Shown here: positions 41,583 to 64,000 of the stretch, piece by piece
Layout: every line of letters begins with the position of its first letter
Position numbering within the stretch: the stretch's first letter is position 1
DNA from: a virus
Lineage: Duplodnaviria > Caudoviricetes
Direction: 5' to 3' (one strand)
IMG/VR virus record: IMGVR_UViG_3300025087_000689
DNA: 64,000 bases
The notes under the pieces: generated by a model
What the model was told of the DNA's origin: nothing
Seen by the model: only the letters and a program-made list of their open reading frames with translations
The model's database searches: none
Program-made: the position numbers and the translations under genes

Positions 41583-42203
41583 ATGGTTTGTAAATATTGT
41601 AATATTAGTTTTACACCATATCACAAAATGCAAATTACTTGTGGTTCTAAAGAATGTTTAAATAAATATCATAAAGAATATCGCAAAACACATACAAACC
41701 AAATACGAGAATATAAGAATAAAAATAAGTGTTATCTGAATGAATACAATAAAAAATATTATAAGAAAAATAGAATACATATTAATGAATCTGACAAAGA
41801 ATATAATATTCAACATAGACAACAAATTAAAGAACGCAAGAAAGAATATTATATTAAATATAAAGATAAGATTAATAAATATGGAAAAGAATATCAAAAG
41901 AATAGAAAACAAACCGACCCTATATTTGTTATGCGATTAAGAATAAGAGATAGATTTAGAAAAGTTATTAAAAAGAATAAATATACTGAATTGTATGGTA
42001 TTAGGATTCAAGATATAATTAACCATATTGGACCTTGTCCAGGTAATCTATCTGAGTATCATATAGATCATATTAAACCACTGAGTTCATTTGATTTAAC
42101 TAAAGAGATTGAGATTCAAAAAGCCTTTGCACCTGAAAATCATCAATGGTTAACTAAAGAAGATAACTTACGGAAAGGTGATAGATATGGGTTACGTATT
42201 TGA
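41583..42203 (+). CDS. HNH homing endonuclease
   Basis: N-terminal CxxC...C, Lys/Tyr-rich linker, YHIDHIKPL...N...L...DN..KG. Confidence 0.85.
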   Translation: MVCKYCNISFTPYHKMQITCGSKECLNKYHKEYRKTHTNQIREYKNKNKCYLNEYNKKYYKKNRIHINESDKEYNIQHRQQIKERKKEYYIKYKDKINKYGKEYQKNRKQTDPIFVMRLRIRDRFRKVIKKNKYTELYGIRIQDIINHIGPCPGNLSEYHIDHIKPLSSFDLTKEIEIQKAFAPENHQWLTKEDNLRKGDRYGLRI

Positions 42204-46924: not shown

Positions 46925-49795
46925 ATGGCTCTTCCTGGAGTAACATCAGACATTAGAGATTATGGTCTGCAGGTGTCACCTGAGCCCCAAGTAAGAAATG
47001 ATAGTATTCTAATCATCGGCACAGCCGCTGACGGCCCGATGTACGAACCAATCCCACTTTCGAGCAAAGACGTTGCTCAAAAGGTTTTCGGTTCTTTTAA
47101 CGCCGGTACTCTTGTTCGTGGAGTGTTCGAAGCAATCGACGCTACCCTAGAGGGAACCCCAGACGTTAGAGGTATGCGAATTGGTGATGGAAAGAAAGCG
47201 AAACTCGAAATCGCGGAAAGACTATCAACTTCAGCTTACTGGGACGCGGTAACAACTGGAACTACATCTCTTAAATTAGAAGCTGTTTATGCTGGTTCTA
47301 AGTATAACGCTGTCTCTGTCTTCATAGATGAAGAAAAGATGATCAACGTTTATAACCCAAAAACCGGTCTTTATAGCCGTTTTAGTTATGACGACACAAA
47401 TCCTTATAATTCATTAGTTGATGCTCGTAACGTTCGTGAACTTGCAGAAGTGATCAATAGTGATCCTAATATAAGTTCTGTCGTGGTAGCATCCACTTCT
47501 GGAGTACAGGCTACTTTCGAAGTTCTAGTAAATTCAGCGAGTAACGGCGTTTCAAACGCTGGTGGTACTAAAGCACAGTTTGATCTAAAAAAGATGCTTT
47601 CTGGTTATGCTATTGCCACCCCTGGTGACGTTCTTCCTACTGGTTATATCTTCGAAGCAGAAGTATCGAATACAGCTGGCAATCTTATCGATAATCTAGA
47701 GGAGGTTTTCTCTATTTCTGTATCGACTCCAACACTCTTCGAAGTGAAAGGAACAACGACCGCAGAATTACTATTGACTCCTTTTGATGGTAAGGGTGAT
47801 TCCCGTTTTGATACAATACAAGCTATGGAAGATTACGACGATGATAACTTCTACTTCGTAACACCTTCTGGTAGTAATGTAGTATCTGAATATATGAATC
47901 TGTTAGATAGAGAAGTATTGCCGGATGTTACAACAGCTGTCAGTATTACTGGTTGGGTTGGTGAATTTGCTGCAAAAGGTTTTCAACTTCCACCTGATGA
48001 CAGTCAAGAAACACTTGTTAGTGGACACGCCAATTATAGCCAGACTGTCACTACAGCTTATGGAACAGGTAATACAGCTGATGTAAGTGGTAATCATGCA
48101 TGTATGGCTCTTGCCGCTGCTAGAGCTGTAAGTGGTTATTATGTTCCTAGAGGATACGTCTATACGGATGTATCAGGAATACCTGCTACAATCGCAGATT
48201 ATGTTAGAATAACGGCCAGTGGTATTGAGTCTTATCTTGATTATCCTGGCAAGGTTATTATAGCTGTATCAAGTACTGGTGGCACATCTGATTCTGAGTG
48301 GACTACACTTCTTTATCATACTGTCTCTGGTATTTATTGCAGTGGTTTTGTATATGATACTGTAACAGGTACTGGCACATTAAGTCTTGCAATCGGTAAT
48401 CAAGCTCTTAATTATTCTGGAAGTAACAGTCTAATTAGTGCTGGTCTTATTACTGCTTCTGGTATGGTTGTGGCTGATAAGTATCTACGTATTAGTTGTA
48501 ATACGATTAAAGGTTTCTTAAGTGAAGCTGAAACATTACCTAACCTACAAGCTGCTAATTCGGATTGGACAACTTACTTTGTAAGAGGGCAACAACTTTT
48601 ATTCTCGGATACAGTTCCTTTTGATATTATTGTCAATTATGGCACTAAAGTCAATTACGAACCAAATTCAGATATTGTTGTTACAGATCCTACACTCGGT
48701 ATTCTGAAAATCGTTAGTGATACTCAACCTGGACCTGGTGGAGAAGTTTTAGATGGTACAAAGAAATCAGTTATTGGTTTTAAGTACAAATATCTGCCTC
48801 AGTTTCCTGCAATCACTACAGCTGCTCAGTCTCTTGAAGGTGGAACAGATGGAACAAAGTTGAATAATGCTAAGTTGTATGATGAATTCGCAACAACTTA
48901 TGACGCTCTTGAGAACTATGAAGCTCGGGTTGTGGTACCTATGGGTGCTTTTATCGATTCTGAGAAAGATAGTTATAATTCCATCACAGGTTTACCTGAG
49001 AGAGTTAATGCCCAGTTCCAAGTACAACTGAAAAATTACTTGAAGAAAGTATCAGTTAATACTAGAGAAACTATCGGTGTTATGGGTTCTGTCCCTGCTC
49101 CAGGAACAACACTACTTGAAGTTAAACGGTTTGTAGATCGTCTATCGGTTCAGGATCTTAATGATCCAAATCGCGGTGCGAATATTATGCCTCTTCTGGA
49201 TGCGTTTCATATTAACGTATGTACGTTTGAACCTGTATTTGATAACCTTGGTGGGTTACCTTATACAGCTAATGGACAAGCTTCGTATGCTGGTATGATT
49301 TCAAGTCTTGATGCTCATCAGTCACCAACAAACAAGTCTATACCAAATGCTCTACGTATGCGGTATGATCTGTCTAATGCCCAACTGGAAGCTCTCCAGG
49401 GTATGCGTATGGTTGCTATGAGAAAGAAACCTGGGCGTAATCCTGTTGTATGTGATGCTATGACAGCTGCAGCGGCTGGTTCTGATTTTGTTCGTCTAAC
49501 TACTGTTCGTATTACTTTCGAGGCGATGGATGTCGTTCGTAAAGTATGTGATCCGTTTATTGGACAACCTAATACAGCGGCTAAGAGAAATGCGATGGAA
49601 GCTGCGATCACGAAGGGATTGTCTGCATTGGTTGATCTTGGTGCACTAAGAAAGTATGCGTTCACTGTATCTTCATCTGTTACACAACAGGTGCTTGGTA
49701 TTGTCGATATTGAACTGGTATTAGTACCTGTGTTCGAGATTAGAACAATTAGAACAGTCGTTAAACTTCGGACTGAAATTCCGTCAAACGGATAA
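46925..49795 (+). CDS. Tail sheath protein with large central insertion
   Basis: LPGV N-terminus, IIGTA.DGP..EP, L.GG.DG, SPTNK.IP, D.MT, RLTTVRI, FIG.PN, P.FE..I C-terminus. Confidence 0.92.
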   Translation: MALPGVTSDIRDYGLQVSPEPQVRNDSILIIGTAADGPMYEPIPLSSKDVAQKVFGSFNAGTLVRGVFEAIDATLEGTPDVRGMRIGDGKKAKLEIAERLSTSAYWDAVTTGTTSLKLEAVYAGSKYNAVSVFIDEEKMINVYNPKTGLYSRFSYDDTNPYNSLVDARNVRELAEVINSDPNISSVVVASTSGVQATFEVLVNSASNGVSNAGGTKAQFDLKKMLSGYAIATPGDVLPTGYIFEAEVSNTAGNLIDNLEEVFSISVSTPTLFEVKGTTTAELLLTPFDGKGDSRFDTIQAMEDYDDDNFYFVTPSGSNVVSEYMNLLDREVLPDVTTAVSITGWVGEFAAKGFQLPPDDSQETLVSGHANYSQTVTTAYGTGNTADVSGNHACMALAAARAVSGYYVPRGYVYTDVSGIPATIADYVRITASGIESYLDYPGKVIIAVSSTGGTSDSEWTTLLYHTVSGIYCSGFVYDTVTGTGTLSLAIGNQALNYSGSNSLISAGLITASGMVVADKYLRISCNTIKGFLSEAETLPNLQAANSDWTTYFVRGQQLLFSDTVPFDIIVNYGTKVNYEPNSDIVVTDPTLGILKIVSDTQPGPGGEVLDGTKKSVIGFKYKYLPQFPAITTAAQSLEGGTDGTKLNNAKLYDEFATTYDALENYEARVVVPMGAFIDSEKDSYNSITGLPERVNAQFQVQLKNYLKKVSVNTRETIGVMGSVPAPGTTLLEVKRFVDRLSVQDLNDPNRGANIMPLLDAFHINVCTFEPVFDNLGGLPYTANGQASYAGMISSLDAHQSPTNKSIPNALRMRYDLSNAQLEALQGMRMVAMRKKPGRNPVVCDAMTAAAAGSDFVRLTTVRITFEAMDVVRKVCDPFIGQPNTAAKRNAMEAAITKGLSALVDLGALRKYAFTVSSSVTQQVLGIVDIELVLVPVFEIRTIRTVVKLRTEIPSNG

Positions 49796-49806
49796 GGGAG
49801 GTATAA

Positions 49807-50487
49807 ATGGCTATTCTAAGTGAAAAAGTAACACAAACATATACTTCAATGTCGGGTTGTGATATTCAAGCTTTCATAGAGAGTGCCCTGCTTGGAAACA
49901 TCCAGGGTGTCTCTTTCTCTATAACAAGAGAAAAGGCTCCTATCTATGTTATGGGTCATGCTGATCCTGTATCATTCTCACGCGGTAAGCGTGGTATCGC
50001 AGGTTCTCTGATCTTTACTAACTTTGATAGAGAAGCACTCTACGATGTAAAGAAAAGTAGCACACTTGATCTGATGTATTATAAGAAAAACTTTGATATT
50101 GCAGCTGGTGGAAGATCTTACGATCTTCTAAATACATCTGGTATTGAAGCTTCCAAATCTCTTGAGGGTGCAAGAGCTGTAGCAAACTACAGTGATCAGC
50201 TCCCTCCTTTCTCAATCGTGCTTACCGGTGCGAATGAGTATGGTTCGACTATGTGGATGGCGATCCTTGGATGCGAACTTCTGAATGAAGGTGCAGGTCT
50301 TTCAATTGACGATATCGTTAATGAAACACAGATGACCTTCGTTGCAAGAGGTGTCATTCCTTGGCAACCTAAGACAACGAATCAGGATTGGAATCAGCTT
50401 ACTGAATCAGCACTGAATAAGTTTGCAAATACAGAAGCGTCGAGATCTATCGACAACTTCGAGTTAGTAAATGCACAGAATGCGTAA
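49807..50487 (+). CDS. Tail tube protein
   Basis: SGCDI, REKAPIYVMG..PVSFSRGKRGIAGSLIF, LPPF.I, E..G.SIDD; follows sheath. Confidence 0.8.
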   Translation: MAILSEKVTQTYTSMSGCDIQAFIESALLGNIQGVSFSITREKAPIYVMGHADPVSFSRGKRGIAGSLIFTNFDREALYDVKKSSTLDLMYYKKNFDIAAGGRSYDLLNTSGIEASKSLEGARAVANYSDQLPPFSIVLTGANEYGSTMWMAILGCELLNEGAGLSIDDIVNETQMTFVARGVIPWQPKTTNQDWNQLTESALNKFANTEASRSIDNFELVNAQNA

Positions 50488-50534: not shown

Positions 50535-51929
50535 ATGGCTAGTACTATCTATAAGACTAATCCGACACCTGAAGAAATTGAGCGTATTACAGCTGAACAC
50601 GAAGCAGCTAAAGCAAAACAAGAAAAAGCTTCTTACGGGGATGATGGTGCTGGTCTTTTTAATTTAGCTGATGAACCCACACCATTTTATGGGTTTACTG
50701 AAAATGAATGGTTAGGATTCTCCGAAACATATAGACGTGGAGTTAGAGACTGGGCTCATGAACAAGCTAGTGTATCTATAACTGCACATGAAGCACAAGC
50801 GTGGACTGATTATATATCTGGTGTGGATTCACCAGCTGTTTTAGACGCGATTTTTGGTCGTTCTTATAAATATAAAGCATTCTTTCAGAATGTTAGAGAT
50901 GCGGGTAATAGAGATCACTTCCAAGTCGCAGAAAATGAACGTAATGCTATAACAGGTGCCAAAGGTTATATTAATCCGGGCAGTATAGCCAATCTAAGTG
51001 ATCTTCAAACCAAACTAGTAAGAGACAGTAATTCATATTCTGGTTGTGATATCACTGCGTCTCTTACAATCGGTGGAAAGACCTTTGTACTAGGTAATCT
51101 TAGTACTATCACATATAGTATTCATAGAGACAAAGTTCCTGTTAGAACACTAGGTAGAACATATGCCAAATCGTATGTATCTGGTGCAGCTACCATCGCC
51201 GGTACTTTAATCTTTACTGTCTTTGATACTCATGTTCTTGATGCTGTAAGACAAGAAGTAGTATCAGAAGTTCAAGCTGCGAGAGGACAAAGTTCTCCAT
51301 TAACACAACAATTACCACCATTTGATGTTACTATTTTCTATCGGAATGAGTATGGTCATGCATCATACATGAGAATCTATGGTATAGAAATTACAGATGA
51401 GGCACAAGGTCATAGTATAAATGATATCTATACTGAGAATCAAATGCAATATGTTGCGAGGGATATCGATCTAATGTGTAAAGTAGGTTCTCAGTTTACA
51501 CCTCAAGCATTAGCTGCTGGTAATAATACTATGTTTACTCAGAGGAATCTATCTACCCCAGCATTTAAATTACAACATCTACAATACAATGAGAATCGTA
51601 TCGGTGAGTTACAGATCGATCTCGCCAGAATGAATAATGAAATTAATGTCCTGGGTTCTAGACTTGCAGAATTGGCGAAGTCCACTCCATCAGCTGAAGT
51701 AACTAATTTAACTGCCGCGTATACAATACAGAAGGCAAATCTGACGAGTGAAGCAGCAAAAAAATTATCAGAGATAACCAATCTACAAAAAGATAATTCA
51801 AAACTAACTTCAAGTGAATCTGATATAGATGAAGCTGCTGTTAGATATGGTTCTAATTTCTCATCTGGAAGAGATGATCCATATGCTCTCTCTAGAGGAC
51901 CTCTATTACAAGTTAAACCAGGGAACTAA
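50535..51929 (+). CDS. Tube-fold paralogue (tube initiator or baseplate candidate)
   Basis: SGCDI, RDKVPVRTLG, IAGTLIF, LPPFD, E....SIND shared with the tube; extra N-terminus and coiled-coil C-terminus. Confidence 0.7.
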   Translation: MASTIYKTNPTPEEIERITAEHEAAKAKQEKASYGDDGAGLFNLADEPTPFYGFTENEWLGFSETYRRGVRDWAHEQASVSITAHEAQAWTDYISGVDSPAVLDAIFGRSYKYKAFFQNVRDAGNRDHFQVAENERNAITGAKGYINPGSIANLSDLQTKLVRDSNSYSGCDITASLTIGGKTFVLGNLSTITYSIHRDKVPVRTLGRTYAKSYVSGAATIAGTLIFTVFDTHVLDAVRQEVVSEVQAARGQSSPLTQQLPPFDVTIFYRNEYGHASYMRIYGIEITDEAQGHSINDIYTENQMQYVARDIDLMCKVGSQFTPQALAAGNNTMFTQRNLSTPAFKLQHLQYNENRIGELQIDLARMNNEINVLGSRLAELAKSTPSAEVTNLTAAYTIQKANLTSEAAKKLSEITNLQKDNSKLTSSESDIDEAAVRYGSNFSSGRDDPYALSRGPLLQVKPGN

Positions 51930-52017: not shown

Positions 52018-52122
52018 ATGAGTACTAAGTTCTGTAAATACTGCAATCAGGAGTTTGAGTTGGACTCTGGTCATTGGTCCATAGAAAATCGTCTTTATAA
52101 AGGTAATAGGTATATAAAATAA
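52018..52122 (+). pseudogene. 34-aa leader ORF, probably the N-terminus of a lost zinc-ribbon endonuclease
   Basis: MSTKFCKYCNQEFELDSGHWSIENRLYKGNRYIK; TAATG-coupled to the next gene. Confidence 0.5.
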
Positions 52123-53621
52123 TGAGTAAGCAACGTGTCAACTTTTCTACCTACCCACAAGATTATTTCTGCGGGGCTCAAGTTCGTATTTATTTTGGTT
52201 CTATTTACGTTGATGATATTGCCACAATTCAATACCAAACATCACATAGTAAGACACCTTTATATGGATATGGTGACCATCAGTTCAGGACAATAGCTAA
52301 AGGACAGTTATTAGTTCGTGGAAGCTTTACTATCGCTTTTAAAGAGACAGGTTACTTATATTCTATTATACAGTTAATGCGTGCAGATAAAGCTGGACTT
52401 GAGTTAATTAGCAAATCAAAGGATTCCTTTGAAACTTATATGAAGTATATAGGAAATGGATTAACACCTGAACAAGCTTTAGATTATACTGCTAATAATA
52501 AAACAACTAATCAAGTTTTTGGAACTGATTTCAAAGATAGTGCAGATTTTGAAGATATATCTGAGGTATTAGAAGATGCGATCTGGGGTAAACCTGGAAC
52601 ACCTGCTTTCTTACAATCAAGAATACCACGATCCGATGAATTAGATTACCTAAAATACACTCAAGCACTTAAGACTAGTTCCGATATAGATAGAGATGGA
52701 TTTGATATACTTCTAACGTTTGGAAGTTATAGAGAAGGTATAGACACTCCCGATCATACAATAGTATCTATTAATGATGTACATATAACAGGTGAATCAA
52801 TGGTTGTTTCTCCTAGTGCTGAACCTATTGGATTAACTTGTGAGTTCTTCGCCCGTGGTATTAATGAACGGATATCTAATGCTTTTCCAGTAGCTGATGT
52901 AAAAGTAGCTGAGGCCGCTAAAGAAGAAGCTAAGGCAGAACCAGAGAAAGCGGCTGAAGAGATTGAAAGTAAGAAAGATGACACTCCACAACAGACGGAA
53001 GAACCGAATCCTAATATGCAAGGACCTCCAAATCTACCTGGATCTTATACACCTTCATCTACTATGGATATTTGTCCTGATCCTAATGATGATAACACAC
53101 AAGTTGTTCCTACTTCTACAACTGAAATGTATGGTCCATCCGTCCCGCTGCCAATACAAAATACAGGAATACTTGGCCCTACTAATGAACAAATTAAAGA
53201 ATACATTAAAACAAAGAAAAGATTAGAAAAAGATAAACAAGTACAAGAGATTCTAGATAAGGAAGAAACCGTAGTTCCTGTTTCACCATCATTAAAATCA
53301 ACTCCATTACCTAAATTATCAGGTAAAGATTTTATGGTCGGTCCTTTAAAAGGTAATAAGAATGCTATATTTAGTAAGGCTAAAATAGCATCTAAAGATT
53401 ATAAAAGTACATTCCTTACAGCAAAACTAACTCTATCGGGTAGTCCAGATAGAGGCAATATACATGGAAAAGCAAGTCCGAGAGGTCCTTGGCCTTGGCT
53501 AGATATAGAAGCCGATTATACTTTATACAACGAAAATACACTGGTGTTTACCAATGTTCAAACTAAGATACCAATATCTACGCTAAAGTCAGCAATGAAT
53601 GATTTTTTTAGTAAACTTTAA
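52122..53621 (+). CDS. Second tube-fold paralogue with Pro-rich linker and C-terminal domain
   Basis: YFCGAQV..YF, K.PLYGY, V.GSF.I; FDI...FG; I.DVHITG. Confidence 0.6.
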   Translation: MSKQRVNFSTYPQDYFCGAQVRIYFGSIYVDDIATIQYQTSHSKTPLYGYGDHQFRTIAKGQLLVRGSFTIAFKETGYLYSIIQLMRADKAGLELISKSKDSFETYMKYIGNGLTPEQALDYTANNKTTNQVFGTDFKDSADFEDISEVLEDAIWGKPGTPAFLQSRIPRSDELDYLKYTQALKTSSDIDRDGFDILLTFGSYREGIDTPDHTIVSINDVHITGESMVVSPSAEPIGLTCEFFARGINERISNAFPVADVKVAEAAKEEAKAEPEKAAEEIESKKDDTPQQTEEPNPNMQGPPNLPGSYTPSSTMDICPDPNDDNTQVVPTSTTEMYGPSVPLPIQNTGILGPTNEQIKEYIKTKKRLEKDKQVQEILDKEETVVPVSPSLKSTPLPKLSGKDFMVGPLKGNKNAIFSKAKIASKDYKSTFLTAKLTLSGSPDRGNIHGKASPRGPWPWLDIEADYTLYNENTLVFTNVQTKIPISTLKSAMNDFFSKL

Positions 53622-53946: not shown

Positions 53947-54620
53947 TGAAAAACATTCCTTTAGGGGAATGGAAGGCTAAATATGGCAGGATCTTTAAAG
54001 TCCGGATAGAAGAGAAGGAAATATATTTCCGACTTTTAAATGCGGGCGAAATTGAGATTTGCAAAAAAACACCGAAAACAATAAGCAAATTAATAGATTC
54101 TGTTATACTTAATAATGAGTCGTTGAGTTCTACTGGTTCAAAGTACAAACTCAGCGACTTTATTATTAGAAATAGTTTTCCTAGTACCGACGATCAATTG
54201 AAGGAGAAAATCCTTCACCATAGATATAAAGTCAAAGATGACTTCACACTTAACTTAATAGCTAAGTTATGTAGTGTCTACGTCTCTTATACCCCCGATG
54301 ACCTAAAATCCAAAACTATAGATCAGCTACTGGAACTGGTAGCCATTGCCGAAGTTATGACTGGCAAACAATTACTCAATGATAAGAAGGGTAAGAAACC
54401 AGGTGTGATGAATACTAGAAGAGACACACAGGAACGAGATGAATCAAAATTTGCCAAACCCCCAGTAAATGAATTAATGGAAGAAACTACAAATGCTCTT
54501 CAAGCAGCTATGACAAAGTTTGGTAAAAAGGTACCGATACTTAGTGAGATTAAAGCTAAAACAAGCAAACCACTAACAGACTTACAAAGACAAATGAAAG
54601 AATTAAATAAGGCAATTTAA
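53946..54620 (+). CDS. Second tail assembly chaperone-like protein
   Basis: WKAKYG...YFR.L repeated from the preceding gene (paralogue). Confidence 0.6.
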   Translation: MKNIPLGEWKAKYGRIFKVRIEEKEIYFRLLNAGEIEICKKTPKTISKLIDSVILNNESLSSTGSKYKLSDFIIRNSFPSTDDQLKEKILHHRYKVKDDFTLNLIAKLCSVYVSYTPDDLKSKTIDQLLELVAIAEVMTGKQLLNDKKGKKPGVMNTRRDTQERDESKFAKPPVNELMEETTNALQAAMTKFGKKVPILSEIKAKTSKPLTDLQRQMKELNKAI

Positions 54621-57600
54621 TGGCTGATCAGTTAGATCGTAATGATATCTATAGTGCTGAGATAGAACAACCTCAGTCCGAAGGTTTATCATTAAAAAAG
54701 ATTGGAATGGATCTTGCCAAGTTCACGCTTGGTATGGCCGTATTACATAAAGCCACTGGTTTTGCCGCCAAATCTATCTTTAATAGAGTAAGTGGAACAA
54801 CAAGATTAGCACCTGGTATCAGTAAAGCTTTGGGTAAACCAATCGGTGAACTATCTCAAAGTATTACGTTGGGTAAGTTGGCAAGTGGTACTTTGGGTGC
54901 ATTTGCTGAGAATCCAGCAATGGGAAAATCTCTATCTAATGCATCGAAAATTCTTCTAGCTGGTCAACGTACTGGGATAAATCTTGGTCGACAGATGATG
55001 CAATCTAAGAATGTAGGTATTAAAGCTTTAGGTTATGTTGGAAAATACTATACAAAAACTCTACCAGTAGCTGCCGGTTTTTACGCTATCAGTAAACCTT
55101 TAGGATTAGATGAAGGAGATAGACCGTCTTGGTATAATGTTCCTGGTCACGTAGCCGCTATAGGAAAGTTAACAGCTGAATTTGCTGCATTTGATGGTGC
55201 TCTGGTTGGACTCAAAAAAGGTACCAGTTTAGCAGCAAATAAAATTATATCAAAGTTACAGTATAAAGATAATCCAGGATTATATAGAGTACTAGATAAA
55301 ACTTTTGGCATGAGAAGAACAGTTAATGGTGCGGAACCTGGTTCTTTTATGAATAAAGTAATGCAAACATCAGCTGTTTTAGATGGTATACGACGTGCTG
55401 GAGCCGCTAGATCTGCACATGTATCAAGAGCAGTTGGTAATTTATGGGGAAATAAATTAGCTAAAGAGGCTCAATATTCTCCAATGTATGATATGAGACG
55501 TAAAGAATTTTACACGGACTTAAAAGAAAGAGTAAAATTAGGTTTTAAAAGTGGTTATGATAGTAGAGTATCCAAGGTTAAGGGTTTCGATAGCACTTAT
55601 GCTACAGCAGCATTAGATTCATTGACTGGAATAATGGCAAAACATCTTAATCAAGATCCAAAAATCTTTTCTAAAAGCGTGGTCGATAATGCAAACGATG
55701 TAGTAATGCAATTAACTAATAAACCACTTCCTAAAGGATTCGCTGGTCAATTCAAAAAAGTTTTAGACGCAAAACATAAGATAGCTGGAAGATCGATGGG
55801 CAGTAGTGTAGGTCGTGGATTTGCAACAGTAGAAGATGTCTTAGCGAATAATGCAACACAAAGATCATTTTCTAATAAGTTATGGAATGCTATAAGAGCT
55901 GGTGCTGATGATTTGGCAAAACCCGAAATAGATAATCTTCAAAAATCATTTCTTGGAATGTATGCTGGTAAAAATGTAGTTAAAGGTTCTCATGGAAGTA
56001 TTATAGATTATAGTATGTACACACCAAGAAATATGCTTGGTGCTATTACTAATTTTATAACACCTGGTCTTAATTTTACAATTCCTTTCACTGGTGGTAA
56101 AACTCTTCCAATTGGTAAATTTCTAGGTTTAGAAAGATATTTAACTAAAGAGGGTTTAAATATTGGATCTATTGGAACTCATGATCAACAATATTATAAA
56201 GATACTATTACTGGTCATATGAGAAGGGTTGGTGTTCAGAGTGGAACTACATCTGGATTAGGAGGAGTTTTAATTGATGGTGAATTATTTATTCATGATC
56301 AGGTAGAAGGGTTAATTAAAGCTAATGCTCCAAAAATGAAGTTGATTGAGTCGTCTCCTTATGCTAGTGAATCTGTCTTATATAAGTTACATGCCGATGC
56401 TGCTACTCGTGGTAATAAAGATAGTATTAAGATAATTCAAGAACTAGAAGAAAAATCACAATCAGGTGGTGGTATTTTTCAGAAATTTGGAAAGTTTATA
56501 CAAAATCGAGGACTTCAGACTCCAGATCTATTAAGTTCTCTATCGGCCAAAATACAATCTAGTTTTGGTATTGGCCCAAAAACTATGGGTGTAAAACACG
56601 CAGCCGAATATATACTTGGCACGAAATCAGCATCTAATATAAGTAAAGCTGATTTTAATAGTTTGTTATCTACTATTCCTTATCTTGGTGAACAGTCCAG
56701 TAAGAATTTATATGGTGCTTTATCCAATCCTAGAATGCTTCGAGCAATGGGTAAGTTGGCATCTCAAAATGGATATGGTAAAAACCATGTTGGAAAATTC
56801 GAAGAGTTATCCACATTGATGGGGCGTTCAGATGATGATATGATGGCTTTTATTAGAAAGAATAGAGCTTTCGAAGACGATAGTGAAATGCAATATGCAT
56901 TAAAAGCATTTGATAAAAATCGTTATGGGTTTGACGATCCTGTTGGTTTTAAATTTGGTAAAATGCCTCTAAGTAATAAAACAAATCTACATAGGCAATT
57001 AATAGAACAGGCTATGGGAAAAGTATATGGTTTGGGAGCACAGGGTGGATCCACTTTTAACTTTGCCGCTGATATGCTTAAAAACAATGATATACTTGGA
57101 ATGTTTAGTAAAGAAGAGGTCAGAGATCTACGTATGGTCGCCACTAATATAGATCTACATACAGGTGGTTTTTTAAATAAATCTGGCACCTATTTTAGTA
57201 AAGAAGGCGAATCACAAACTAAAGCTGTAGATATTATTAGTAAATATCTTGGTAATGAAAGAGCTTATCTTGAAAAAAGTTTGTATGATACACCATTAAT
57301 TCATGGAATAGGTTTATTTTCTGGTGGTAGAAAAGCCGCAGGACTGGATAGAATACGTCTTTCTGAGTCATTAGAAGCACAACAGAAACGCGAAAATCCT
57401 TTTAATAGAGACTACGCACATGGCACAGATCTATTAGTTGAACAAAGTGGAGGTTTTCTTAGAACTATAAATTACTATATTGATAAAGTCATGTCTATGG
57501 GTACCCATTTCGGACTTAAATATGGTATGAAGGAAAGAGGAGACGGGTATATAACTTTAGGAAAAGGACTTACGAGTTTTTTACCAAAAAGTGCTCCGGT

Positions 57601-60600
57601 ATTTACAAAGAATATTCTTGAGAAAGTAACTAATAAGAAATATTATATTGGTGGTCCTTTAAAACAATTATCTCGTAGAGTGGCTCAAGGTGTTGGTGTA
57701 TTAGCTGCAGCACAGGCTTTAGATACGTTTGTAGACGTCAATCCATTATTTGATGGTACTGCTTTTGATAATGGTATCTTTGTTCCAGTAGCTGAAACTT
57801 ATGCTAAAGCAAGTATGGCTTTTCATAAGGTACAAGATCTAACTGGTATTACCGAGGCCGCTAAATATTTAGATGGTCTTATGCCTGGTTCTTTATCTAC
57901 TATTCCTGGTATGATTATAGGTGGTATGAGTAGAGGTCCTCTTGGTATACTAGGTGGAGCTGTTATTAATAGGGCCATGGACGCCGTTGGTTTATACCCT
58001 AAGTTTGATAAATCTTACGATGAAATGGCCGGAATGTATTCTGGTAGAGAGTTGGTACCTGTAAGACGGAATAGATTTTGGTTATTTGGTAAGTCACCAT
58101 ATGAAGGCGATGGTCCATCTTATTTTAGACCTCACTGGCTACCAAGATTAAGATCTCAATATAAGTATACGGATACATTATATGGTTCGAAAGCAGAAGC
58201 ATTTATATTTAAACCATGGGTTGGGCTAGGATTTAATCCTTTAGGTCATATAATAGATAAATATCACCACGAGAAGACACATTATTGGGATAGACCTTAT
58301 CCTGTTACTTCTGCGGCATTTACTGATACTATTATAGGTGGTCCTATTTTAAGTGCCACGATAGGTAGGTTACCTATTATTGGTAAACCGATTAAGTATA
58401 TGCATGAAGAAGAAATGTCTGGTTATTATTCGAAACAAGGTAATACAACATCAGTGGATGGTGAATTGGCTACGTCTCATATGGCTAATGCCGATGCAAC
58501 AGATCAATTATTATATATGAATAAAAAGGCTAACTTGGCTGCAGATCAAAGTTTATATGGTCAAAGACCAAAGAGTTTGAATCCTTATGGTGTAATGAAT
58601 GTACTAGGTGAACAGATGTATAATTTTACAGAATTTGCCGGATTACCTGGTTATAAACTTGAAACTCTTATGGGTGGTCATCCAGGTGATTTTAATCCAA
58701 GATTTAGTACATCAAATGAAATGACATCAGTACGTAGAGCTTTCTGGGATCTTAATATGGGTGATTATTTTGCATCGAGTGAGTTTTTTCGTAGATTTGT
58801 TCCCAAAGAAAAAAAGGTTTGGGAGAAGGTAAATCCTCTCAGAAATAAGATGTCATCTTGGTTACCTAGTCAGGAGGGGGATTATTTTGTTGACTTTTTA
58901 ACGGGAGATGCGTTCTGTGTCAGTAAGAATACTTTCGTTAATATAAATCATATCTATATAAAAGCAGAATTTGTTAAAGTAAATGATATTATATATACAC
59001 ATAAAGGAAATTATTTACCTGTTAAAAATATTGTAAAAAGACCTATTTTAAAAAATGAAAAATGTTACTCTTTAAAAGTTGCCGGTATAAATAACATATC
59101 ATTAGAATTTTCTCAAGAACATCCATTGTATATTAAAAAAATAAGTTATTGTAGTTTTGGTTCTTCTTGTATTTGTCGTCCCATTAGAAATATTAATAGT
59201 TTTTGTGATAGTATAAATAATAATAAATGGTCTGGTAGAGGAAGACCACCAAATGGCTGTAAAAATACATGGATAAAAGAAGATATAAAATTTATACCAA
59301 TTAAAGATGTAGATGTAAATTCTTATCTTGTATATAAAATTCCACAAGAAAACAAAGAAGTTACTTTAAATTATGTTTATTTACAAAGAGATAACACCAG
59401 ATCATCGGAATATAAAGTTAATGGTTCGATATTATTAGATGAAGATTTATCGTGGGTTTTAGGATTATATTTATCAGAAGGTTCAACGGGAAAAAATAAA
59501 TCTAAAAAACCACTACAATTAATTTTTTCAATGAATAAAAATGAAGTTGGTGTACAAGAACAAATTAATGAAATTATATATAAGAAATTTGAAATTAAAG
59601 GTACTTTAAAAATAAAAGATGAATCATCCGAATTAGTATTTTCATCGACTAAATTAGCACAAATTTTTGCAAATTGGATACCTGGAAATTTATATGAAAA
59701 AAATATACCTGATTTTATTTTTACTACTAATAATAACAATAAGTTGGCTTTCTTATTTGGTTGTTATTTAGGAGATGGTTATATATCAAATAAACGTTTA
59801 AGTTATGAATGTGCTAATCAGAATATAGTATTTGGTTTAAGAAGATTGTCTTTTGAATTAGGTATACCAGCTTCTTATAACGATAGAATTAGATTTGATA
59901 AAAGAACACAAAAAGAAACTAAAAGTTTCATAACAGAAATACATGTATTTTGTATTAAGGATTTTAATTTAAAATATCTTAATTATAAAAAAGATATTAT
60001 TGATTTAAATTTTGATAGATTACCAAATATAGATAACTTTTCAGATAGTAATTATATCTATCAAAAAATTATAGGTAAAGAAGAAATACAACTCGATTAT
60101 GTTTATGGATTTGAAGTAGATAATGATGATTCTTTTTGTGTTATGGATTTTGCAACTCATAATACAAAAATATCCGAAGGGGAGATACGTCTTCCGGGTT
60201 CAGCATATGATAAATTATATGATGTTAAGAGAACGTTCCCAGGAAGGGCTAGTTCCCTCGGAAAATCAGTAAATGACCTAGTTAAAGGAATGGTTGGATT
60301 TGATCCACCTGATACGGAAGATGCAGAAGATATTATGGCTACTGGCACAGCAATGCACAGGTATATTCAAGACTCTATGATTAGAAATAACATCGGTTAT
60401 AAGGCCGAACAATTAGTATATGATGCTAAAGAAGATATCAGCGGTCACATTGACTTACTTATGTATGATCCTTATCGTAAGGGTGGTAAGCGACCATTAG
60501 AAATTAAAACAATTAATGCAAAGGGATTTGGTAAACTTAAAGGACCCCATTCTAATCACATAAGTCAATTAAACTTCTATTTAAGACAAATGCAAATGGA

Positions 60601-62092
60601 AGTAGGTACTATATTATATATTAATAGAGATGATCCAACGCAAATTAGGACATTTGATGTGAGATATAACGAGGAAAGATTTAGACGAGATGTTCAAGAT
60701 TTGAGAAAAGCTCGGACTATCGCAGCTCAACTTATGACTAGTGGCAAGGGATTTGAGAATGGTGCTAGCTATAGTTGGCTAGATAGATATAGAATATTAG
60801 GTGATGTGGCTCCATATTCTAATGAATATAAACAAGCCGGTGAAATTGTTGCTTTACAACTTCGTGCTAATAGGTTACCTGAATCAGCTAAGGATGAGGT
60901 AAGAAAAATCAAACAACATAGAAAATCCGTAATGCGAAAGTTTGATCTCTATCCGACTAGATTTAGAAATAGAGTATTTAATCCGGATGTTAACTATGAA
61001 TTACAGTCTGAGAATACCAATATTAAAGCGGCTGCCGAATATAGTTTTGGAGAGAGGGTATTAGGATCTATTTGGGAACGTGCTATTCAAATGGATACTC
61101 CACTTAATACTAAGTTATGGAGTTATAGATCACCTCTACAACATTATCAAAGAACCAAATTATATGGAACCGATTCTGCTTCTTGGAATAGACCGTATCA
61201 AGATCTTATCAAACCAATGTTTACCAAGGCTTTATCTGCTGATAATCCAATGGACGCAGCTGCTTCTTTTGGTTGGATCGGAGCTATAGGTTTGGGTGGT
61301 ATGGGTAATATGGGTATTCCTGGTGCTGTATTTGGTGGTTTATATGGTGCTGCACGTTCATTAGTTGGTAATGATGCTTGGATTCCAGATGAAGTAAATA
61401 AAAAAAGAGAGATAGAGCGTACTTTTGATCAACTTAAGTATGTTAAAAATATGGAATTATATAATCAAACAGGAGATGAAAGATATCAGACGGCTGCAAG
61501 TGAGACTCTTTGGAATATTAGTCATAGCGGATATCAAGTCGGTGTTAGACAAGCAATGAGATCTATTTCATCCTTTGAAAAACCATACTTTCTAACTTGG
61601 ATGAAAGAAACCAATCCTATAGAAAGAGAAAATATTTTAGAACATGTACCAGAAGAGGTTGGTAATTTATTAAAGGCTAAGTGGGGTATGTCCTATGACT
61701 TACCTAAACCATCAAAATATGAAATGATGATACCAAATTCAGATTGGGAAGGATTATTACCAAACGATAATCTTGATGATATTAAATATAAAACTATTAA
61801 TCAGGAAGGTTTAAGAGCTAACGATTTTGGAATGGGCTGGTATGATCAACAAAGAAGGACGGCAACTTCTCAGTTTGAACTTAATCCAATTGAAAATCCC
61901 AACGATATCCTATCGTCTAATAACGTAGCAAGTAGAATTAAATCTGCATTAATGAGGACATTAGGAACTTATGTGAGAAGACCATTAATTAGTATTTCTA
62001 TTACACCCGGAGGATCGGATTCGGTAAAATTAAATATTCGTTTAATGCGAGACAGATTTAATGATATTAAAGAAGCATTAAGGACCAGATAA
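54620..62092 (+). CDS. Giant tape-measure-position virion protein with intein and PD-(D/E)XK nuclease domain
   Basis: 2490 aa after chaperones; Gly/Ala/Lys-rich with hydrophobic helices; G..MH..E..SGHID..EIKT..H.SQ..FY. Confidence 0.75.
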   Translation: MADQLDRNDIYSAEIEQPQSEGLSLKKIGMDLAKFTLGMAVLHKATGFAAKSIFNRVSGTTRLAPGISKALGKPIGELSQSITLGKLASGTLGAFAENPAMGKSLSNASKILLAGQRTGINLGRQMMQSKNVGIKALGYVGKYYTKTLPVAAGFYAISKPLGLDEGDRPSWYNVPGHVAAIGKLTAEFAAFDGALVGLKKGTSLAANKIISKLQYKDNPGLYRVLDKTFGMRRTVNGAEPGSFMNKVMQTSAVLDGIRRAGAARSAHVSRAVGNLWGNKLAKEAQYSPMYDMRRKEFYTDLKERVKLGFKSGYDSRVSKVKGFDSTYATAALDSLTGIMAKHLNQDPKIFSKSVVDNANDVVMQLTNKPLPKGFAGQFKKVLDAKHKIAGRSMGSSVGRGFATVEDVLANNATQRSFSNKLWNAIRAGADDLAKPEIDNLQKSFLGMYAGKNVVKGSHGSIIDYSMYTPRNMLGAITNFITPGLNFTIPFTGGKTLPIGKFLGLERYLTKEGLNIGSIGTHDQQYYKDTITGHMRRVGVQSGTTSGLGGVLIDGELFIHDQVEGLIKANAPKMKLIESSPYASESVLYKLHADAATRGNKDSIKIIQELEEKSQSGGGIFQKFGKFIQNRGLQTPDLLSSLSAKIQSSFGIGPKTMGVKHAAEYILGTKSASNISKADFNSLLSTIPYLGEQSSKNLYGALSNPRMLRAMGKLASQNGYGKNHVGKFEELSTLMGRSDDDMMAFIRKNRAFEDDSEMQYALKAFDKNRYGFDDPVGFKFGKMPLSNKTNLHRQLIEQAMGKVYGLGAQGGSTFNFAADMLKNNDILGMFSKEEVRDLRMVATNIDLHTGGFLNKSGTYFSKEGESQTKAVDIISKYLGNERAYLEKSLYDTPLIHGIGLFSGGRKAAGLDRIRLSESLEAQQKRENPFNRDYAHGTDLLVEQSGGFLRTINYYIDKVMSMGTHFGLKYGMKERGDGYITLGKGLTSFLPKSAPVFTKNILEKVTNKKYYIGGPLKQLSRRVAQGVGVLAAAQALDTFVDVNPLFDGTAFDNGIFVPVAETYAKASMAFHKVQDLTGITEAAKYLDGLMPGSLSTIPGMIIGGMSRGPLGILGGAVINRAMDAVGLYPKFDKSYDEMAGMYSGRELVPVRRNRFWLFGKSPYEGDGPSYFRPHWLPRLRSQYKYTDTLYGSKAEAFIFKPWVGLGFNPLGHIIDKYHHEKTHYWDRPYPVTSAAFTDTIIGGPILSATIGRLPIIGKPIKYMHEEEMSGYYSKQGNTTSVDGELATSHMANADATDQLLYMNKKANLAADQSLYGQRPKSLNPYGVMNVLGEQMYNFTEFAGLPGYKLETLMGGHPGDFNPRFSTSNEMTSVRRAFWDLNMGDYFASSEFFRRFVPKEKKVWEKVNPLRNKMSSWLPSQEGDYFVDFLTGDAFCVSKNTFVNINHIYIKAEFVKVNDIIYTHKGNYLPVKNIVKRPILKNEKCYSLKVAGINNISLEFSQEHPLYIKKISYCSFGSSCICRPIRNINSFCDSINNNKWSGRGRPPNGCKNTWIKEDIKFIPIKDVDVNSYLVYKIPQENKEVTLNYVYLQRDNTRSSEYKVNGSILLDEDLSWVLGLYLSEGSTGKNKSKKPLQLIFSMNKNEVGVQEQINEIIYKKFEIKGTLKIKDESSELVFSSTKLAQIFANWIPGNLYEKNIPDFIFTTNNNNKLAFLFGCYLGDGYISNKRLSYECANQNIVFGLRRLSFELGIPASYNDRIRFDKRTQKETKSFITEIHVFCIKDFNLKYLNYKKDIIDLNFDRLPNIDNFSDSNYIYQKIIGKEEIQLDYVYGFEVDNDDSFCVMDFATHNTKISEGEIRLPGSAYDKLYDVKRTFPGRASSLGKSVNDLVKGMVGFDPPDTEDAEDIMATGTAMHRYIQDSMIRNNIGYKAEQLVYDAKEDISGHIDLLMYDPYRKGGKRPLEIKTINAKGFGKLKGPHSNHISQLNFYLRQMQMEVGTILYINRDDPTQIRTFDVRYNEERFRRDVQDLRKARTIAAQLMTSGKGFENGASYSWLDRYRILGDVAPYSNEYKQAGEIVALQLRANRLPESAKDEVRKIKQHRKSVMRKFDLYPTRFRNRVFNPDVNYELQSENTNIKAAAEYSFGERVLGSIWERAIQMDTPLNTKLWSYRSPLQHYQRTKLYGTDSASWNRPYQDLIKPMFTKALSADNPMDAAASFGWIGAIGLGGMGNMGIPGAVFGGLYGAARSLVGNDAWIPDEVNKKREIERTFDQLKYVKNMELYNQTGDERYQTAASETLWNISHSGYQVGVRQAMRSISSFEKPYFLTWMKETNPIERENILEHVPEEVGNLLKAKWGMSYDLPKPSKYEMMIPNSDWEGLLPNDNLDDIKYKTINQEGLRANDFGMGWYDQQRRTATSQFELNPIENPNDILSSNNVASRIKSALMRTLGTYVRRPLISISITPGGSDSVKLNIRLMRDRFNDIKEALRTR
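58916..60163 (+). mobile_element. Intein (416 aa) with LAGLIDADG endonuclease
   Basis: CVSKNT start, EHPL block B, GLYLSEG and YLGDG, VYGFEVDNDDSF..THN followed by Thr. Confidence 0.92.
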
Positions 62093-64000
62093 TGGCTGAT
62101 AATTTAAGCGACGATATACTTGGTAATGATAACGATGTGAGTCCTCTATCAAGAGGAGTTTCTGTTGCAGGTTTGGTTACAGCTGGATTAGGTTTTCCAA
62201 GTTTATGGAAAACTTTTAAAGAGAAATATCCCAAAGGTATTGATATATTTGCTAATAGATTTACTAAAAATCAACCAACTGAGATTGAATTACAACATGC
62301 TATAAGTAAAACTATTTTTGAAAAATCTCTAGATTCTTCGCATTTGATTAAAAGTATAATGGATAAACCAGTTCTTTTTGATGAAAGATATGACAAAACT
62401 AATACTTCAACATGGGCACAGATGCAACGTAAGAGAAGACGTTTTGAACTTATAACATCTCCAGAGGGTAATCAAATAGAACAACTAGAGAACATGATTC
62501 AGAAAGCATCGAAGGATTTAGATATTATCGCTAATGATGAGGCATTACAGGTATACAGAAAAGAAGCAGTTGCTTTATATATACGTGAAATAGGAGAGAA
62601 AGAATTTCTTGGTAAGTTTCCATTAATGACCGGTTTTGTCAATGGATTAAAATCCGGTGCCATGATGAACACAGCCGATGTTAATAAAATATTTACAGAA
62701 GTTCTATCCCAAGGTAATTCTAATCTTTTAAATAGTTTATATAGAGATTTATTAAAATATGGACGCTCTGATAATGCTACTCTTTTAGCGTCCAGAAGTA
62801 AGATTGTTAAGTTACTGGATCGCCCGTCTAAATATCAAGGTCGACTTAATATTAATCAACCAACTAAAATCGACAAGAACTTCTATGAATTTCATGCATC
62901 GAAGTATAAAACAGGTGAATTGTTCGCGGAAGAAGTTATGGGGACGGTTCATCAAAAGATAGAATGGTCGGCGGAAAATAGAGCTAATAAAGTAGATCTT
63001 AAATTTAAAAATGTTTTAAAAGAATTATATAATGAGGTCCACAGTGAAAGATCCAGTCTTAAAGGTCCCGGATCCACATTTTCAGTTAGACTTACTAATT
63101 CCGGTGGAACTAGCAATGCTTTAGATAGACTAGAGATCTATTCTATTGATCCTGGTGGAGAAAAAAGAACATTCTTCTTGGATTTACCTAAAAAAGGTTA
63201 TATTAGAGGTGGACAAAGAGTACCTCAAACTTCAATTTATTCAGGTAAAGGTTTTATACCAAGTAATATAATCGAATCACAAGTTGATGGTTTAGCTTCG
63301 AATGTAAAAACTATTGCACACGCTCTCGTTACAGAAACAGATGGTAAACAAGAAGTGGCAAGAGTGCAAAGATGGTTTGACAAACAATTCAAGACAAGTG
63401 ATTTAGCAACCGGTAATACATATCTTGATACAGCAAAACGCGGAATAGTATCTCGTAATGATATGCCATGGTTAAATGCATCTACAAAAGCACTTAAAAA
63501 TAGAGCTAGTGGATTATTAGAATATAATACTTTAAATTATGTTAAGAAAACAGGACAAGATATATTAATTTATGATACTGAGTTCTATACAGGTAGAGCT
63601 GGAATCCAACCACTAGTTAAAACACCACAAGCGGCTAGGTTATATCAGATATCATATAGAAGGGTATCTTCTACAGGAGAAGCTCTCACTCATGGCAATT
63701 ATTATATAAAAGATGCGTCATTTGAAAGATTATATAAAGCGTATAAGAGTGGAACAACTTGTCTTGAATTAGAAAATCTTAAACATGTTTTAAATCAGAC
63801 AGGTAAAGGTACTCCAGAACATCTAGATTGGCTTATAGAAACGATTCAAAAAGAAGGTGTCACGCCTAAACAAGCTTTATCTAGGGTCTTTAATGAAGCG
63901 GGTAAAGGTGCCGCTATTTTAGATTTCGCTGGCAAAGGAGGTTCCGATAGAGCATTAATTGATTATATATCTCCTGAATTTTTAAAAGATAGAACTATGA
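62092..64000 (+). CDS. Second large virion-locus protein (3'-truncated) with DEDD/DnaQ-like exonuclease motifs
   Basis: Frame open from ATG 62092 to window end by my translation; ILIYDTEF..LYQISY..GVTPKQAL..F..AILDF.G..GSDRALI; missing from ORF track. Confidence 0.75.
   Translation, partial: MADNLSDDILGNDNDVSPLSRGVSVAGLVTAGLGFPSLWKTFKEKYPKGIDIFANRFTKNQPTEIELQHAISKTIFEKSLDSSHLIKSIMDKPVLFDERYDKTNTSTWAQMQRKRRRFELITSPEGNQIEQLENMIQKASKDLDIIANDEALQVYRKEAVALYIREIGEKEFLGKFPLMTGFVNGLKSGAMMNTADVNKIFTEVLSQGNSNLLNSLYRDLLKYGRSDNATLLASRSKIVKLLDRPSKYQGRLNINQPTKIDKNFYEFHASKYKTGELFAEEVMGTVHQKIEWSAENRANKVDLKFKNVLKELYNEVHSERSSLKGPGSTFSVRLTNSGGTSNALDRLEIYSIDPGGEKRTFFLDLPKKGYIRGGQRVPQTSIYSGKGFIPSNIIESQVDGLASNVKTIAHALVTETDGKQEVARVQRWFDKQFKTSDLATGNTYLDTAKRGIVSRNDMPWLNASTKALKNRASGLLEYNTLNYVKKTGQDILIYDTEFYTGRAGIQPLVKTPQAARLYQISYRRVSSTGEALTHGNYYIKDASFERLYKAYKSGTTCLELENLKHVLNQTGKGTPEHLDWLIETIQKEGVTPKQALSRVFNEAGKGAAILDFAGKGGSDRALIDYISPEFLKDRTM

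Follow-up and report, generated by a model that had tools for sequence, protein, structure and literature searches.

A divergent DEDDh-type exonuclease domain predicted beside an RNA-polymerase-like motif in a giant tail-module protein of an uncultured jumbo phage

The DNA considered here is a stretch of 64,000 nucleotides (the window) from the virus record IMGVR_UViG_3300025087_000689 (Duplodnaviria; Caudoviricetes), an uncultured, metagenome-derived groundwater jumbo phage. It holds the structural module of a jumbo myovirus, with terminase, portal, protease, major capsid protein, sheath and tube-like genes, and it ends inside a gene of the tail block that encodes a protein of 2,355 amino acids (aa), the subject of this report. 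A first-pass annotation, made from the letters of the window, had noticed this open reading frame (ORF) running from 62092 to beyond 64000 and coupled to the previous gene by TAATG, and had seen in it the motifs of a DEDD/DnaQ-like 3'-5' exonuclease. The frame and the coupling are evident in the translation and at the junction, and TAATG junctions also occur 3' of the 2355-aa gene and 3' of the 65-aa gene that follows it. The complete gene lies on a 221-kb metagenome contig (L002, 17473-24540, equivalent to 62092-69159 in window numbering), which was found via exact look-up of the upstream protein and agrees with the window at 0 mismatches across 19,381 shared bases; a search of viral and metagenome contigs for the exact pattern of the window's end gave no match. 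Its length bears out the earlier description of the product as giant. The gene callers of the public assemblies had called the gene, with no Pfam match. The sequencing runs that carry this sequence are groundwater and soil metagenomes, and no RNA runs are among those listed.

Between aa ~485 and ~735, the protein very probably adopts a DEDDh fold with an intact catalytic pentad, as judged from motif conservation and a predicted structure. The family in which this can be followed is rare, its sources being groundwater and soil. A HMMER scan of the first 636 aa against 1.8 billion representatives gave 9 proteins, six of them full-length (2129-2474 aa), and a word-based homologue search added only P0011, at 55% identity. 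No relatives were found in IMG/VR by single-protein or alignment query, and phages in INPHARED/GenBank had no DNA or protein match. Conservation counts given below refer to eight full-length homologues with 19-56% identity to the query, with the partial sequence P0002 compared separately.

The peptides from which the exonuclease proposal arose, ILIYDTEFYTG (aa 491-501, nt 63562-63594), LYQISY (aa 517-522) and the stretch from GVTPKQALS to SDRALI (aa 589-623, ending at nt 63960), are all present (see the table for the positions of the motifs). D495, E497, D611, G614, D619, D638, H716, D717 and D721 are invariant in 8/8 of the homologues, so that the DxE of ExoI is conserved throughout; the partial ninth sequence is consistent with the invariant columns as far as its frame break. 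Of the ~241 positions of the domain, 18 are invariant, among them the five catalytic ones. ExoIII, which had been expected past the end of the window, was found 80-85 aa beyond it, with both H716 and D721 invariant. In the family, the motifs take the forms h-h-h-Y-D-x-E-F (ExoI; h, hydrophobic), h-D-x-x-G-x-G-G-x-D-R-x-h-h (ExoII), I-D at the end of the next strand, and A-H-D-S/A-S-V-D (ExoIII); their counterparts are IDLEM, GNSIGQDRRFL, YLDVS and HQAMDD in Escherichia coli Orn and LDTET, HNAAFD, VTDS and HGALLD in E. coli DnaQ. The H-N of ExoII had been described as substituted, and this is the case, with h-D611 in its place. The accompanying worry that the domain might be degenerate falls, because the pentad D495/E497/D619/H716/D721 is intact and only the non-catalytic H-N has been swapped for an invariant Asp; D619 itself is followed by R-x-h-I, as in the DRRFL of Orn. 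The invariance of D495, E497, D611, G614 and D619, together with the downstream ExoIII, lifts the motif set above chance.

Table. Features of the locus (window numbering, except where L002 is named)
Feature	Position	Strand	Basis or remark
Terminase large subunit, 1070 aa	18927-22139	+	
Portal, 997 aa	25563-28556	+	
206-aa gene in the structural module	41583-42203	+	endonuclease VII match (phrog_1035, E 6.7e-7)
Sheath	46925-49795		
Three paralogous post-sheath genes	49807-50487, 50535-51929, 52122-53621	+	match to phrog_9206
Preceding giant, 2490 aa, tape-measure position, with PD-(D/E)XK domain (aa ~1901-2061) and intein	54620..62092	+	
LAGLIDADG intein, 416 aa (aa 1433-1848, C...VSKNT to ...ATHN/T), inside the 2490-aa gene	58916-60163	+	
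TAATG stop/start overlap with the preceding 2490-aa gene (its TAA)	62090..62094	+	sequence
5' part (aa 1-636) of the 2355-aa gene	62092..64000	+	ATG-started frame, open past window end
Predicted DEDDh exonuclease domain, N-terminal two-thirds (aa ~482-636: b1, b2, b3, helical insert, b4, aB)	63535..64000	+	AlphaFold2 model, fold searches
ExoI, D495-T-E497, strand b1	63574..63582	+	invariant in 8 full-length homologues and partial P0002
Strand b2, YQISYR (aa 518-523), invariant Q519	63643..63660	+	alignment, model
ExoII: D611 (b4 end, in place of H-N), G614, catalytic D619, R-A-L-I starting helix aB	63922..63960	+	alignment, model
ExoIII, H716/D721, H-x4-D	L002 19618-19635 (beyond window end)		alignment

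An RNase H-like DEDD fold, on which the exonuclease proposal depended, is predicted in an AlphaFold2 model of aa 460-800 that was built on a 9-sequence alignment, and it is matched in PDB, BFVD and AFDB. The model runs in the order b1-b2-b3-aA-b4-aB-b5, with b1 at aa 491-500, b2 at 515-525, b3 at 531-539, four helices, b4 at 608-611, a helix from D619, b5 at 636-638 and more helices. The part of the domain outside the window extends to aa ~735 (L002 ~19675) and comprises b5, a helical insert of ~60 aa and the ExoIII helix. Strand b1 carries the DxE, the helix that follows b4 begins with D619, b5 closes with D638, and a late helix opens with the HxxxxD. In a Foldseek search of the PDB, the top 50 matches were all Orn/REXO2, RNase T or PolC exonucleases (best E 1.1e-4, probability 1.0, TM by target ~0.5), and DEDD exonucleases were on top in BFVD and AFDB-SwissProt as well. 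Alignment with VIA gave Z 9.9 for the PolC exonuclease 2p1j (root-mean-square deviation 2.9 A over 120 aa), 9.1 for Orn, 8.9 for epsilon and 8.7 for ExoI. An unbiased VIA scan of 48,161 PDB chains, independent of Foldseek, returned DnaQ-like exonuclease folds in all of its top 18 rows (Z 9.4-7.5), while the helical segment at aa ~650-736 matched generic helical bundles. The fold evidence takes its weight from the agreement of the top rows with each other and with the prior motif prediction, and from the invariance of the catalytic residues.

Several results weigh against an exonuclease. Pfam RNase_T (PF00929) matched neither the whole protein (E<=5) nor any of the 9 domain sequences (E<=10), so that the profile search for RNase_T/DEDDh, which had been suggested as a check, came back empty. 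Comparison by hhalign with E. coli Orn and DnaQ gave probabilities below 1%, a profile search against PDB sequences returned nothing relevant (its rows for de novo TIM barrels were dismissed as a short low-complexity match), and Pfam and PHROGs gave no match for the 2355-aa protein and its parts. The Z values are modest, at 8-10 against a background that VIA states as 7-8, and the model is shallow, with 9 sequences behind it, a mean predicted local distance difference test score (pLDDT) of 65 (70-95 in the core blocks) and values of ~50-56 around the ExoIII residues. Finally, in one relative (L001, 51% identical, on a 3.7-kb contig) the frame changes right after the H-D-S-S of ExoIII, at L001:2100-2300, splitting the gene into ORFs of 740 and >506 aa; this may be an assembly error or decay. 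The domain is probably invisible to sequence profiles because of two helical insertions, and because no profile method detects it, membership is assigned at the level of the superfamily only, by predicted fold and active site, Pfam-level membership having failed. Might the motifs then be a chance resemblance with no exonuclease fold behind them? The absence of profile support and the shallow alignment under the model would allow it, but the motif prediction preceded the folding, the fold results agree with it independently, the top of the unbiased scan is uniformly DnaQ-like, and the predicted ExoIII turned up, invariant, where it was expected outside the window, all of which makes such a coincidence highly improbable.

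The same irregularities could also mark a structural relic, a pseudo-nuclease with the DEDD fold whose only role in a giant tail or ejection protein would be that of a scaffold. The large helical insertions (aa ~540-605 and ~650-715), the lost canonical H-N and the vanished profile similarity would all fit such an origin, the VIA scan also matched the exonuclease-like folds of Pol alpha and Pol zeta, which are inactive, and the frame break in L001 falls inside ExoIII. Inactive DEDD domains, for example that of Pol alpha, have typically lost catalytic residues, however, and here the five catalytic residues are invariant across lineages with only 19-28% overall identity. A relic is therefore improbable, and there is good reason, from the alignment and the model, to expect the exonuclease domain to be catalytically active. 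It would then remove nucleotides from free 3' ends at a two-metal site formed by D495, E497, D619, H716 and D721.

The exonuclease domain does not stand alone in the protein. About 1,100 residues downstream, and in the same chain in 8/8 homologues, lies the motif R-x-P...D-x-D-G-D (aa 1802-1851), in which R1802, P1804, D1847, D1849 and D1851 are invariant. The local sequence is L-R-A-D-S-D-G-D-N (aa 1844-1852), which contains the sole DxDxD of the protein and resembles the NRAP...NADFDGD of the catalytic barrel in E. coli beta'. An Asp triad preceded by R-x-P, as at the metal-binding site on the beta'-like barrel of the two-barrel (double-psi beta-barrel, DPBB) RNA polymerases (RNAPs), is thus present. 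The second, beta-like barrel of such enzymes has a conserved Lys pair; here K1047 is invariant, in a G-x-K-G-like segment that is a candidate for this barrel, whereas K1040 is invariant only in the five closer sequences. On these sequence grounds, the balance tilts toward the 2355-aa protein being a two-barrel polymerase too. Structure and profile searches do not confirm it. The AlphaFold2 model of aa 960-2110 (1151 residues) is poor (pLDDT 50), and searches with it by Foldseek against PDB and VIA-wide brought up nothing but dyneins, coiled coils and helical hairpins, rows that say nothing about an RNAP fold. Pfam had no match in the polymerase-like region, and an hhalign comparison of the core profile with RpoC and RpoB found none either; against aa 1-1200 of gp96 of phage P23-45, the best local alignment falls on DFDGD, at an E of 0.16 that is not significant. 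A feature search of the DxDGD region in the ESM Atlas stayed below the recognition threshold, and its one cluster of RNA-dependent RNA polymerases (RdRPs), at rank 83 (score 0.77), is a lead only.

Could the would-be polymerase make DNA instead, with the exonuclease as its proofreader, in analogy to archaeal PolD? Dedicated 3'-5' exonucleases normally go with DNA polymerases, and the exonuclease domains of PolC and of family-B polymerases are the top VIA rows. The catalytic subunit of PolD has a two-barrel build and is homologous to the subunits of RNAPs (PMC7281927). The gene is part of a tail module, however, and not placed beside replication genes, and those two-barrel enzymes that are known from virions or tape measures are RNAPs. 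In addition, zinc-binding cysteines abound in PolD DP2, whose proofreader is of a different, Mre11-like kind, while the 2355-aa protein has a single Cys (a count not otherwise taken as evidence). A PolD-like system is accordingly only a very slight possibility.

Outside these two regions, the sequence is well conserved at aa ~740-950, just after the exonuclease domain, with G740, H775, S796, Q828, G842, N866 and G884 invariant. Conservation across the family peaks in the last ~150 aa (aa ~2200-2350), and the first ~50 aa are conserved too; the termini could be packaging, tail-anchoring or ejection signals.

The genes around the 2355-aa gene follow one another in the order sheath, tube, two small genes (103 and 224 aa), the 2490-aa giant, the 2355-aa gene, the 65-aa gene and a third giant of 2431 aa, and in one relative a baseplate-J gene (Baseplate_J) comes after this third giant. 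The succession of chaperones, giants and baseplate recurs in two relatives, one of which is the most distant for which DNA is available. The gene thus lies, as part of a translationally coupled block, between tube/chaperone and baseplate genes, where a tail-delivered protein would be encoded. The nuclease domain of the 2490-aa giant is of the PD-(D/E)XK type, Cas4/RecB-like; its counterpart in the most distant relative (L007) shows 50% identity and also stands beside the exonuclease. The first-pass annotation had regarded the two giants, each carrying a nuclease, as an injected module of two nucleases, endo plus exo. The adjacency holds, and injection is suggested by the position of the genes; a two-nuclease module does not tell the whole story, as the 2355-aa chain also carries the R-x-P...DxDGD motif.

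Some further features of the module are of interest in their own right. The intein of the 2490-aa giant lies ~60 aa before the PD-(D/E)XK domain, and L007 is without an intein at exactly that point. The terminase large subunit and the portal are both oversized and have internal matches (phrog_36001 and phrog_85) typical of intein N-terminal regions, so they probably contain inteins as well. The three paralogous genes after the sheath match phrog_9206, "major head protein", a label that is probably misleading, since their position suggests a tail tube or tube-related role. The 206-aa gene with the endonuclease VII match is also part of the structural module.

What would an exonuclease do in such a protein? 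Gene position suggests that the protein enters the host along with the DNA, as do gp96 of P23-45 and gp66 of a crAss-like phage, and the exonuclease may then be an accessory of the delivered polymerase. It could act in one of two ways. In the first, it would expose single-stranded template at a DNA end or a nick, possibly together with the PD-(D/E)XK nuclease of the preceding giant. This template-preparing role is worth considering because the virion RNAP gp66 of the crAss-like phage phi14:2 accepts single-stranded or denatured DNA as a template and leaves double-stranded DNA untranscribed (bioRxiv 10.1101/2020.03.07.982082). In the second, it would trim the 3' ends of RNA, either for proofreading or for the removal of abortive or nano-RNAs. 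That the exonuclease serves transcription by an injected polymerase, by template resection or by RNA 3' trimming, is given a probability of about 0.4. A bolder version, which on the sequence and the models must be called doubtful, would make the protein the first DNA-templated two-barrel RNAP with a built-in DEDDh 3'-5' exonuclease, one that proofreads or trims its own transcripts or that resects the incoming genome, or a nick left by the PD-(D/E)XK nuclease, to obtain single-stranded template.

On the other hand, an active DEDDh exonuclease could work independently of any polymerase, as a delivered nuclease for host takeover or against host defenses. It might degrade host DNA or RNA ends together with the PD-(D/E)XK nuclease, or it might, like Orn, destroy short oligonucleotide or dinucleotide signals. 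This proposal can call on the same evidence from fold and motifs, the top Foldseek matches include Orn/REXO2, the D-R of ExoII is Orn-like, the PD-(D/E)XK domain is present in the adjoining protein (in L007 too), and the Cap18 exonuclease associated with cyclic-oligonucleotide-based antiphage signaling systems (CBASS) turns up in the fold scan as well (Z 7.0). Orn is not, however, set apart from PolC, epsilon, ExoI or DinG in the fold rows, their Z values being tied within 1, and the presence of exonuclease and DxDGD in one chain in all of the homologues suggests a shared job. An independent attack on host or defense is consequently rather unlikely, and a role in transcription is preferred.

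Dedicated domains for 3'-5' exonuclease activity typify DNA polymerases, along with a few replicases of RNA viruses, whereas cellular-type RNAPs rely on their own active site and on cleavage factors. A conserved, seemingly active DEDDh domain that shares a chain with an RNAP-like motif and that is placed for delivery would therefore raise the possibilities of exonuclease-assisted transcription or of nuclease-made templates at the start of infection. More generally, giant phage tail proteins w/o database matches can conceal recognizable enzymes, and a family as small and rare as this one offers a compact target for biochemistry.

How does this arrangement compare with known systems? The DEDDh fold itself is ordinary. 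What has not been described in the literature searched is its placement in a giant tail-module protein beside an RNAP-like motif, and its extreme divergence; nor did that literature describe a DEDD exonuclease joined to a virion RNAP, which is an absence of match and not proof. With the DEDDh exonucleases Orn/REXO2, RNase T, Pol III epsilon and PolC, the phage domain shares the ExoI DxE on b1, the ExoII Asp after b4, the Asp at the end of b5, the ExoIII H-x4-D and the predicted fold, and with Orn (DRRFL) it shares the D-R-x-h-h at ExoII. It differs from them in having h-D611 for H-N, a 3-residue G-rich insertion before the catalytic Asp and helical insertions of ~65 aa and ~60 aa, and in sitting within a 2355-aa tail-module protein, being neither free-standing nor fused to a DNA polymerase. 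DEDDh nucleases tied to viral RNA synthesis do exist, namely the nsp14 ExoN of coronaviruses and the NP exonuclease of arenaviruses, but the viruses concerned are RNA viruses whose RdRPs are of the right-hand type, and RNA is what these nucleases act on, whereas here the would-be partner is a DNA-templated two-barrel enzyme of a DNA phage.

Closer parallels are found among the virion RNAPs. The gp96 of Thermus phage P23-45 is a virion two-barrel RNAP fused to the tape measure and recognized only by its DFDGD (PMC10770324). Like the present protein, it is a giant product of the tail block whose link to RNAPs in sequence is through DxDGD only (DFDGD there, DSDGD here). It differs in belonging to a siphovirus, in its 5002 aa and in its peptidase and membrane domains, and its paper (PMC10770324) contains 0 occurrences of exonuclease or nuclease; the present protein comes from a jumbo myovirus, is the second of three of ~2400 aa and has an RNAP fold that is only putative. 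The phi14:2 gp66 differs in its DFDID, its podovirus-like virion and a paper that does not mention a nuclease domain. In overall design, gp66 resembles the phage protein as proposed here: it is a single-chain virion protein of ~2200 aa with a DxDxD, delivered for early transcription (bioRxiv 10.1101/2020.03.07.982082).

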